A stretch of 64,000 nt of DNA, taken from the NCBI GenBank assembly GCA_964514655.1, contig CAZEQY010000014.1:10378-74377 (forward strand). The letters run 5' to 3'. Made by a program: the position numbers and the translations under genes. Of this stretch, positions 63,283-63,782 are shown piece after piece. Each line of letters opens with the position of its first letter. Position 1 is the first letter of the stretch. This stretch comes from an uncultured bacterium. Its GTDB lineage: Bacteria; Chlamydiota; Chlamydiia; Chlamydiales; FEN-1388. The notes below the pieces were generated by a model that was given only the letters and a program-made list of their open reading frames with translations, had not been told where the DNA came from and ran no database searches.

Positions 63283-63366
63283 TATATATATTCTTGAGGC
63301 TTAAAGGTGTTTTTTTGGTAAGATAAAAATTTAACGCAAAAACGCAAAAACCCAAAAACGCAAAAA
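63283..63366. repeat. Second copy of the spacer plus right arm of the 45-kb palindrome
   Basis: The 15-nt core TTGAGGCTTAAAGGT (63294-63308) equals 45112-45126. AACGCAAAAACGCAAAAACCCAAAAACGCAAAAA (63333-63366) matches the right arm at 45149-45182 except for A-run lengths. Confidence 0.85.
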
Positions 63367-63370
63367 TCAC

Positions 63371-63748
63371 TTAAAGACCATTTACAACTCGCGAAATTCC
63401 ATCTCCTACGCATGGATTACCAAAGTTGATCACCAAGCCAAGTTTCTTGCCTGTTAATCGTAAATATGTGAGAACTTGTGTTTCATATATAGGGTGGTAT
63501 TTTTCTGTTGCTTTAATCTCAAGGATTACCTTGTCTTCGACAAGAATATCTATGTACAAATGTTCACTAACTGTTACACCCTTGTAAACAACCTTTACAG
63601 GCAATTGCCTTTGGTACTTGAGACCACGAAGAGTGAGCTCATGACATAAAGCTTCTTCATAGATGCTTTCAAGCAATCCTGGTCCCCCGAGAGTTCGTTG
63701 AACCTCGATGGCCGCTCCGATTATTTTGTATGATAGTTCGTTTTCCAT
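63371..63748 (-). CDS. GxxExxY-family protein (PD-(D/E)XK nuclease fold)
   Basis: The sequence MENELSYKIIGAAIEVQRTLGGPGLLESIYEEAL contains GxxExxY, and DILVEDKVILEIKA gives the D...ExK motif. Confidence 0.85.
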   Translation of the reverse strand: MENELSYKIIGAAIEVQRTLGGPGLLESIYEEALCHELTLRGLKYQRQLPVKVVYKGVTVSEHLYIDILVEDKVILEIKATEKYHPIYETQVLTYLRLTGKKLGLVINFGNPCVGDGISRVVNGL

Positions 63749-63749
63749 A

Positions 63750-63782
63750 TTTTGCGCTTTTTGGGTTTTGCGTTTTTGCGTT
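63750..63782. repeat. Left-arm copy of the octamer repeat, abutting the GxxExxY start codon
   Basis: TTTTGCGCTTTTTGGGTTTTGCGTTTTTGCGTT matches 45053-45085 except for T-run lengths. It is inverted relative to 63333-63366. Confidence 0.85.

Follow-up and report, generated by a model that had tools for sequence, protein, structure and literature searches.

In a stretch of 64,000 nucleotides (nt) from an uncultured chlamydial bacterium (contig CAZEQY010000014.1, positions 10,378 to 74,377; hereafter the window), we analyzed a small gene of the GxxExxY family, which encodes a predicted PD-(D/E)XK nuclease and is bracketed by two inverted arrays of short units, here called the arms. A palindrome near 45 kb contains the same parts and no gene. 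Our comparisons showed that the gene and its arms, together the cassette, form one conserved, horizontally moving, strain-variable unit of inheritance. They also showed that arm copies without the gene exist in two topologies, a hairpin produced by internal deletion (locus L083 of a cave metagenome) and a permuted palindrome, 'family A', which is multi-copy in the window genome. We give about even chances to an explanation in which a nuclease gene is paired with cognate dispersed repeats and the two act together in the manner of REP/RAYT or NTS/Ssn, with a chemistry that we infer. The evidence for these statements, and for several other explanations, is described below.

The nuclease gene and its flanking arms

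Each arm consists of four octamers of CGCAAAA type (4 + 4 units) and spans 33-34 nt. The arm at 63333-63366 ends 4 nt from the stop codon and the arm at 63750-63782 ends 1 nt from the ATG, so that the open reading frame (ORF) is abutted on both sides by inverted unit arrays. The inverted repeat over the 5'-side arm is 38 nt long and is 89% complementary to 63328-63365. Beyond the arms the two flanks differ. The 3'-side flank reproduces the 45-kb palindrome minus most of the distal arm, whereas the 5'-side flank consists of the arm and an outer module, 'a', without a distal arm. The coordinates of these features are collected in Table 1; those that an earlier note on this DNA had given for the gene, the arms and the order of parts at 45 kb all held on re-reading.

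The similarity between the 63-kb and 45-kb loci is extensive. Positions 63259-63365 and 45074-45181 form a 107-nt alignment with approximately 85% identity (score 67), and a 25-nt arm pattern, allowing at most three mismatches, occurs seven times, always at these two loci, and in none of 100 shuffled sequences. The 15-nt core TTGAGGCTTAAAGGT, which the earlier note had reported as identical at both loci, was confirmed. Taken alone it is weakly significant (two found against 0.23 expected), but it lies within the longer alignment, and the similarity of the two loci therefore exceeds what low-complexity A/T sequence would give, a concern that the earlier note had itself raised. The arms are also far better conserved than synonymous sites. 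In relative L001 (described below) the 34-nt 3'-side arm differs from that of the window at one position although synonymous divergence (dS) is approximately 1, and the arms are therefore under selection of their own.

The protein belongs to its family by a wide margin, matching PF13366 with E = 5e-38 (130.5 bits, cut-off 22) and TIGR04256 with E = 5e-41 (139.6 bits, cut-off 35). The GxxExxY motif reads G24-L-L-E27-S-I-Y30, and the catalytic residues E27, D67, E77, and K79 are all present. Residues E27, Y30, D67, and K79 are invariant across 59 sequences, and E77 is invariant among 28 closer homologues. A structure model computed from a shallow alignment reached a predicted local distance difference test score (pLDDT) of 65, and a more diverse alignment raised it to 95.4. 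The modelled fold is the restriction-endonuclease-like alpha/beta fold. Its best structural matches in the PDB are Cas4 (SSO0001, Pcal_0546) and the lambda, LHK, and RecE exonucleases, with template modelling (TM) scores of 0.5-0.6 overall and 0.53-0.60 for SSO0001 and the lambda and LHK enzymes, and it corresponds to a minimal nuclease core that lacks the Fe-S module. On the strength of this model, the protein is predicted to be a conserved minimal Cas4/lambda-exonuclease-like nuclease. It is also under strong purifying selection, the ratio of nonsynonymous to synonymous divergence (dN/dS) among five close cassettes being 0.05-0.14 with dS near 1 or saturated, and 0.06-0.14 for the gene of the window.

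Other searches returned little. The 125-residue protein has no sequence match in the PDB or in PHROG, an exact-sequence look-up gave no match, and PADLOC returned just a weak match to Cas4b (E = 0.006). The family itself is very large, with at least 8,000 matches to PF13366/TIGR04256. In the literature on GxxExxY, PDDEXK_3, PF13366, and TIGR04256 we found no functional study and no account of genomic framing, and the sole function entry for the family that we came across, in a 2012 survey of PD-(D/E)XK proteins, is 'Unknown' (PMC3424549).

The promoter-like site facing the gene is a consensus match only and is not kept in relatives; if used, it would place both arms in the transcript. The earlier note had pointed out that the arm leaves no room for a Shine-Dalgarno (SD) sequence, and indeed no SD-like purine tract lies between arm and ATG (GCGCAAAAT-ATG).

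Table 1. Positions of the cassette, the 45-kb palindrome and associated features within the window
Feature	Position	Strand	Description
GxxExxY / PDDEXK_3 nuclease gene	63371-63748	minus	125 amino acids (aa); Pfam and NCBIfam matches
3'-side arm	63333-63366	plus	AACGCAAAAACGCAAAAACCCAAAAACGCAAAAA; four 8-nt units AACGCAAA AACGCAAA AACCCAAA AACGCAAA; period 8
5'-side arm	63750-63782	plus	inverted copy of the unit array
3'-side flank	63259-63332	plus	distal-arm remnant, palindrome centre with core TTGAGGCTTAAAGGT, outer module 'a'; aligns to 45074-45148
Upstream outer module 'a'	63783-63826	minus	matches L197 at 33/42 and L001 at 30/42 positions
Promoter-like site TTGACA-17-TAAGAT	63814-63842	minus, facing gene	consensus scan, 10/12
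Strain-variable block	63254-63910		657 nt; holds the cassette; absent from a near-identical strain (run X6)
Gene-less 'family A' palindrome	45045-45189		T-rich arm 45045-45085, 63-nt spacer 45086-45148, A-rich arm 45149-45189
Larger strain-variable block	44902-45288		palindrome nested in outer inverted repeat 44958-44995 / 45253-45290

Strain variation and gene-less copies

The window derives from an activated-sludge metagenome. Sequencing run X1 is probably its source sample, while X6, X5, and X7 belong to other studies. A 21.8-kb contig from X6 is collinear with the window from 45390 on and shows two differences over 61500-63253. After 63253 it continues with 20 nt, TTGTTGCTTTTTATTATATA, that align to 63911-63930, and then with 63931-63998. 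The contig thus jumps from 63253 to 63911 and represents a strain without 63254-63910, that is, without both arms, both flanks, the gene, and a tract of ten G residues. This empty allele reads TAA-TTGTTGCTTTTTATTATATA-ATTTG, with neither arm nor palindrome left, and no contig in the X6 sample is at least 85% similar to the gene body. The filled left junction is present and identical in two further studies (X5 and X7), and X8 and X9 contain identical fragments of the gene. Filled and empty alleles therefore occur at the same site. A homing endonuclease gene would have its product cut the empty allele and would be copied in by repair. Six differences are packed into 9 nt beside the right junction of the 657-nt indel, which hints at a complex or recombinational event.

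Two sequence features lie at the margins of this block. The G10 homopolymer (63879-63888) is within the strain-variable block and outside the conserved cassette, and is absent in the X6 allele. A terminator-like hairpin at 63246-63260 (CGGCAT-AAA-GTGCCG followed by ATTTTG) spans the stop codon of the upstream kinase gene and the first 7 nt of the block, so that the block supplies half of the terminator stem of that gene. The kinase region (60026-63253) is split into ORFs of 774 and 283 aa, with a partial Pkinase match only in the second.

Arm copies without the gene outnumber the gene in this organism. With copy numbers estimated from summed contig depths relative to strain depth, the arms stand at approximately 6.5 times strain depth in X1 while the gene body stands at one, and in X6 the arm region is still covered at approximately three times strain depth. 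Contigs that carry arms alone run on into at least three different kinds of flank, with other outer flanks. The proposal of the earlier note was to be refuted if the arms lay mostly elsewhere and other GxxExxY genes lacked them. The former applies here, most arms in this organism being gene-less, but the relatives described below show that the link between arm and gene is real.

The 45-kb palindrome is the gene-less copy contained in the window. It is 145 nt long and centred at 45117, with perfect outer arms of 41 nt and 82% complementarity over arms of 72 nt, and as DNA it is predicted to fold into a hairpin of -54.8 kcal/mol (z = -13.6). Its spacer is made of two 'a' modules set head to head, which are homologous to the 'a' modules of the cassettes (31/38 positions against L001). 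Arms and spacer are consequently the same parts as at 63 kb in permuted order. Both ends read GAAGCTTC; the resemblance to the start of the ORF (ATGGAAAACGAGCTT) is no more than suggestive of descent from it. The order of T-rich arm, spacer, and A-rich arm is that expected where two cassettes meet, where a circle has closed, or from fold-back copying of a cassette end, and simple deletion cannot produce it.

This locus, too, varies between strains. In an X6 contig position 44901 is joined directly to 45289, and both the palindrome and the inverted repeat in which it is nested are gone. The segment 44902-45288 is a second strain-level indel and has imperfect direct repeats, CGTGCCCGTGC and CGAGCAGGGGC, at its edges. 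Elsewhere in the window, 367-24831 contains ten large ORFs (694-920 aa) on both strands and an adenylate kinase gene (7715-8488).

The earlier note had described this arrangement as cassette-like, taken the 45-kb locus for an empty site, and likened the arms to integron attC sites. In such an explanation the arms and spacer would be attC-like, the cassette would be moved by a tyrosine recombinase, and the 45-kb locus would be a junction without a gene. The junction-type order at 45 kb agrees with it, as do the left flank of the gene, which is a truncated copy of the palindrome, and some relatives in which a complete hairpin stands on each side of the gene; an imperfect palindrome with a promoter-poor single-gene unit is likewise common to both systems. 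However, the true empty allele is that of X6, which lacks the whole of 63254-63910 and has no palindrome or arm. In addition, attC has the arrangement R''-L''/L'-R' and lies at the 3' end of the ORF, whereas here the arms lie at both ends and are tandem octamer arrays whose unit is particular to this gene family and accompanies it from phylum to phylum. The cassettes are solitary rather than arrayed beside attI and an integrase gene. No attI was found, and no integrase among the window ORFs, the latter in agreement with the earlier note: none of the 20 mid-size ORFs (230-590 aa) is a recombinase, nor is there a recombinase among the called neighbours of three relatives (L001, L197, and L199). 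We regard an integron-like system as extremely unlikely. What stands of the earlier proposal is a discrete gene cassette bracketed by arms that also occur without the gene, and the junction-type order at 45 kb. In the comparison of strains that it suggested, for a gene present or absent between arms, the gene varies in presence and the arms vanish along with it.

Relatives of the cassette across bacteria

The same arms recur in close relatives whose gene neighbourhoods are unrelated. Locus L001, from a cave metagenome, has 90% amino-acid identity and the same octamer arms, with a 97-nt inverted repeat (80% complementary) around the ORF; its neighbours are a hypothetical gene and a chorismate synthase gene. 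The same plan is found in L175 (83% identity), in L197 (82%), which lies between a kinase/FGE-sulfatase gene and dciA, and in L199 (80%), which follows a gene resembling o-succinylbenzoate synthase (OSBS) and has GCAAAG units. The block conserved among these close cassettes (80-90% identity) consists of 'a' (approximately 35 nt, from near GGCTTRAAG), the array, the ORF, the inverted array, and inverted 'a'. Beyond module 'a' there is no conservation between cassettes. A shared TTGAAATTTGACA and a C-run in common with L175 were considered as additional homology and did not rise above shuffled sequences, and ARAGORN found no tRNA remnant beside L175.

The same metagenome as that of L001 contains the second gene-less form. 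Locus L083 reads a - array - ATGGAAAACGAAC - inverted array - a', and is a cassette that has lost all of its ORF but the first 13 nt. In the L083 hairpin the arrays are located at the loop and in the 45-kb palindrome at the base, which gives two gene-less topologies. In the runs from the source sample of L001 we found paralogues and the L083 form, and no empty site. A scan of metagenomes for the arm pattern gave 115 loci, nearly all of which are unrelated octamer arrays on one strand; the informative ones were only L083, L161 (on the same contig as L001), and L175.

Two further observations concern the cave material. Run X11 contains at least two more diverged copies of the gene (L001:3013-3334), with 34 differences over 303 nt, and with 14 and 11 differences in shorter pieces. 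The whole L001 cassette is also enclosed by an outer 30-nt inverted repeat (L001:2768-2797 / 3542-3571, 93% complementary), a nesting like that at 45 kb.

The design extends over the family at large. We surveyed 80 GxxExxY loci from species-representative genomes of 15 phyla by local alignment of the 200 nt upstream with the reverse complement of the 200 nt downstream, counting a score of at least 15 as positive, and used 240 equal-length segments from the same loci as controls. An inverted repeat was detected at 59 of the 80 loci (74%) and in one control segment (0.4%). At 35 of these loci neither arm is more than 25 nt away from the start or stop next to it. Arms typically comprise two to four units with a period of 8-10 and the core C(G/A)CA(G/A)AG, of which the CGCAAAA of the window is a lineage variant; at least two copies of one such heptamer in canonical orientation are present at 72 of 84 loci. 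At several loci a complete hairpin lies on either side of the gene, or gene-less arrays come after the cassette, and in some relatives the arrays stand in the opposite order around the gene.

Unit type goes with the protein tree and not with the host phylum. Mapped onto that tree, unit type requires 12 changes, against 32 with shuffled labels, and none of 200 shuffles was as low. One clade (support 98) contains 35 proteins from eight phyla, and all 31 that could be typed have CACAGAG units.

Two individual loci deserve mention. At L005:2782-3554 the GxxExxY ORF has an in-frame stop and is likely a pseudogene, and its inverted repeat is the longest and best of the set (158-nt arms, score 136). 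On a GC-rich metagenome contig (L171:285-560), inverted AACGCAAA-type arrays surround approximately 220 nt with CTTGACCGAGATTCCCATC repeats and no GxxExxY gene.

These comparisons bear on two alternative explanations. In the first, mobility of the 'family A' palindromes would be due to a different enzyme of this genome, a Y1 transposase of the RAYT-like or TIRYT kind, and the GxxExxY gene would simply have inserted between or beside such palindromes. The nesting of the 45-kb palindrome in another repeat would fit such an insertion preference, and so would the retention of palindromes by the gene-less X6 strain. However, relatives in other organisms have the same arms tight against the ORF (0-5 nt from start or stop) and unit type tracks the protein tree across phyla, and we consider an association by insertion preference alone very improbable.

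The second would place the function in RNA. The arms would pair in the transcript as a stem of approximately 33 base pairs around the ORF, serving RNase III cleavage or a block of translation, and the gene-less palindromes would be terminators or small-RNA hairpins. ORF-bearing intervening sequences of 23S rRNA in Leptospira and Coxiella, which encode the four-helix-bundle protein S23p, would be the model. They resemble the cassette in that a small ORF lies inside a long inverted repeat with a stem in the transcript, and differ in that the cassette is not in rRNA and encodes another protein family. The predicted RNA fold does pair the 5' and 3' arms around the whole ORF (-148.9 kcal/mol, z = -4.2), most family members have arms that directly adjoin start and stop, and a promoter-like site upstream of the 5' arm is combined with a lack of room for an SD sequence. 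On the other side, complementarity between the arms is not maintained, as unit numbers differ and middle units drift while the unit motifs are kept, and some relatives have the arrays in opposite order. A stem would explain neither the loss or gain of the block between strains nor the dispersal of gene-less copies, and Rfam gave just generic long-hairpin (miRNA-precursor) matches below threshold. A search of RNA runs for the locus gave no match. An element acting at the RNA level seems to us distinctly unlikely. The units are kept although the arms complement each other only loosely, both orders of the arrays around the gene are seen, and unit type co-varies with protein clade; each of these favours recognition by a protein over pairing of a stem.

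Candidate mechanism and known counterparts

If the nuclease and the repeats do form a cognate pair, the process could be as follows. The Cas4/lambda-exonuclease-like nuclease would recognize the unit arrays, in cis at the ends of its own cassette and in trans at gene-less copies, and would cut at or near them. Host recombination or repair would then complete the cuts, leading to gain, loss, or upkeep of the cassette and to the making of gene-less derivatives. The 45-kb palindrome would be a product of this process, a junction or fold-back of cassette ends, and not an empty recombination site.

Several points weigh against this explanation. That the protein binds or cuts the arms is something we infer, and strand transfer is beyond a PD-(D/E)XK nuclease acting on its own. 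Neither a target-site duplication nor a terminal inverted repeat is found at the indel boundaries (63254 and 63910), and the indel is longer than the conserved cassette, reaching 42 nt past it at one end and 84 nt at the other. The 657-nt difference could have arisen by insertion or by deletion. Arm copies are still present in the X6 strain, which has no gene. Finally, within a single cassette the arms do not match each other strictly as complements, with a differing unit number in L001 and diverged middle units in L197.

Among known systems, the arrangement works most like REP/RAYT and NTS/Ssn, though it lacks the defining protein feature of both. As in REP/RAYT, one small gene lies between inverted copies of a repeat (PMC8266576; bioRxiv 10.1101/2021.07.10.451892), gene and repeat co-evolve, and further copies of that repeat are scattered without the gene as inverted doublets whose arms are conserved and whose spacers vary, as also found here. 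However, RAYT is a Y1/HUH transposase in place of a PD-(D/E)XK nuclease, the repeats are single REP hairpins rather than arrays of two to four phased 7-8-nt units, and RAYTs are mostly vertically inherited, whereas the GxxExxY gene is strain-variable and crosses phyla. The likeness to NTS/Ssn is that a small nuclease gene has on either side a repeat that also occurs in many gene-less copies, an association discovered by the same kind of flank analysis (PMC11893778). Site-specific cleavage of single-stranded DNA at NTS has been demonstrated for Ssn (PMC11893778). The Ssn fold is GIY-YIG and not PD-(D/E)XK, and NTS is a single hairpin of approximately 30 nt rather than a unit array.

The NTS/Ssn precedent also suggests a domesticated host function. 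The nuclease would act on genome-wide hairpin repeats, for example in modulating recombination, transformation, or the processing of DNA ends, its own flanks would be two sites for autoregulation, and the strain difference would be an ordinary deletion. In its favour are the published precedent itself (PMC11893778), the excess of gene-less arm copies over the gene, the strong purifying selection on the protein, and an indel of 657 nt without transposon-like ends. Yet the gene is dispensable, X6 having the repeats and not the gene; gene and arms cross phylum boundaries together; and the diverged gene copies and gene-deleted derivative of the cave metagenome look more selfish. We consider a domesticated function rather unlikely.

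Insertion sequences (IS) and miniature inverted-repeat transposable elements (MITE) offer a further comparison. They share with the cassette terminal inverted repeats (the 97-nt arms of L001), one ORF that takes up the whole element, a derivative with an internal deletion (L083), presence or absence between strains, and occurrence of the same element at unrelated sites. The cassette differs in having no DDE, serine, tyrosine, or Y1 transposase, its only ORF being the 125-aa PD-(D/E)XK protein, in the lack of target-site duplication at the one indel observed, and in that the commonest gene-less form here is permuted, with the arms outside and the outer modules inside.

A bolder proposal would make the GxxExxY cassettes a pan-bacterial and undescribed class of minimal selfish elements of approximately 0.5 kb, whose sole protein, the 125-aa nuclease, cuts the inner arm edges of phased C(G/A)CA(G/A)AG-type arrays. 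The 'family A' palindromes would then be traces of an intermediate that was circular, tandem, or folded back, joined element ends freed of the ORF that persist and multiply as non-autonomous copies even in gene-less strains. This proposal is speculative, and we hold it to be unlikely in this full form.

For the GxxExxY family, the conserved, family-specific DNA motif array that directly adjoins the gene at either end provides a concrete candidate substrate. The locus studied here offers an exact pair of filled and empty alleles in near-identical strains and a strain that keeps the repeats without the gene, and the two gene-less topologies constrain any mechanism. If the protein were a sequence-specific nuclease of single strands or hairpins, it might find practical use, as Ssn does. 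The pairing of nuclease and cognate repeats that we favour would add the GxxExxY family to REP/RAYT and NTS/Ssn as a third case of a nuclease coupled to its own repeat, unrelated to the other two in structure.

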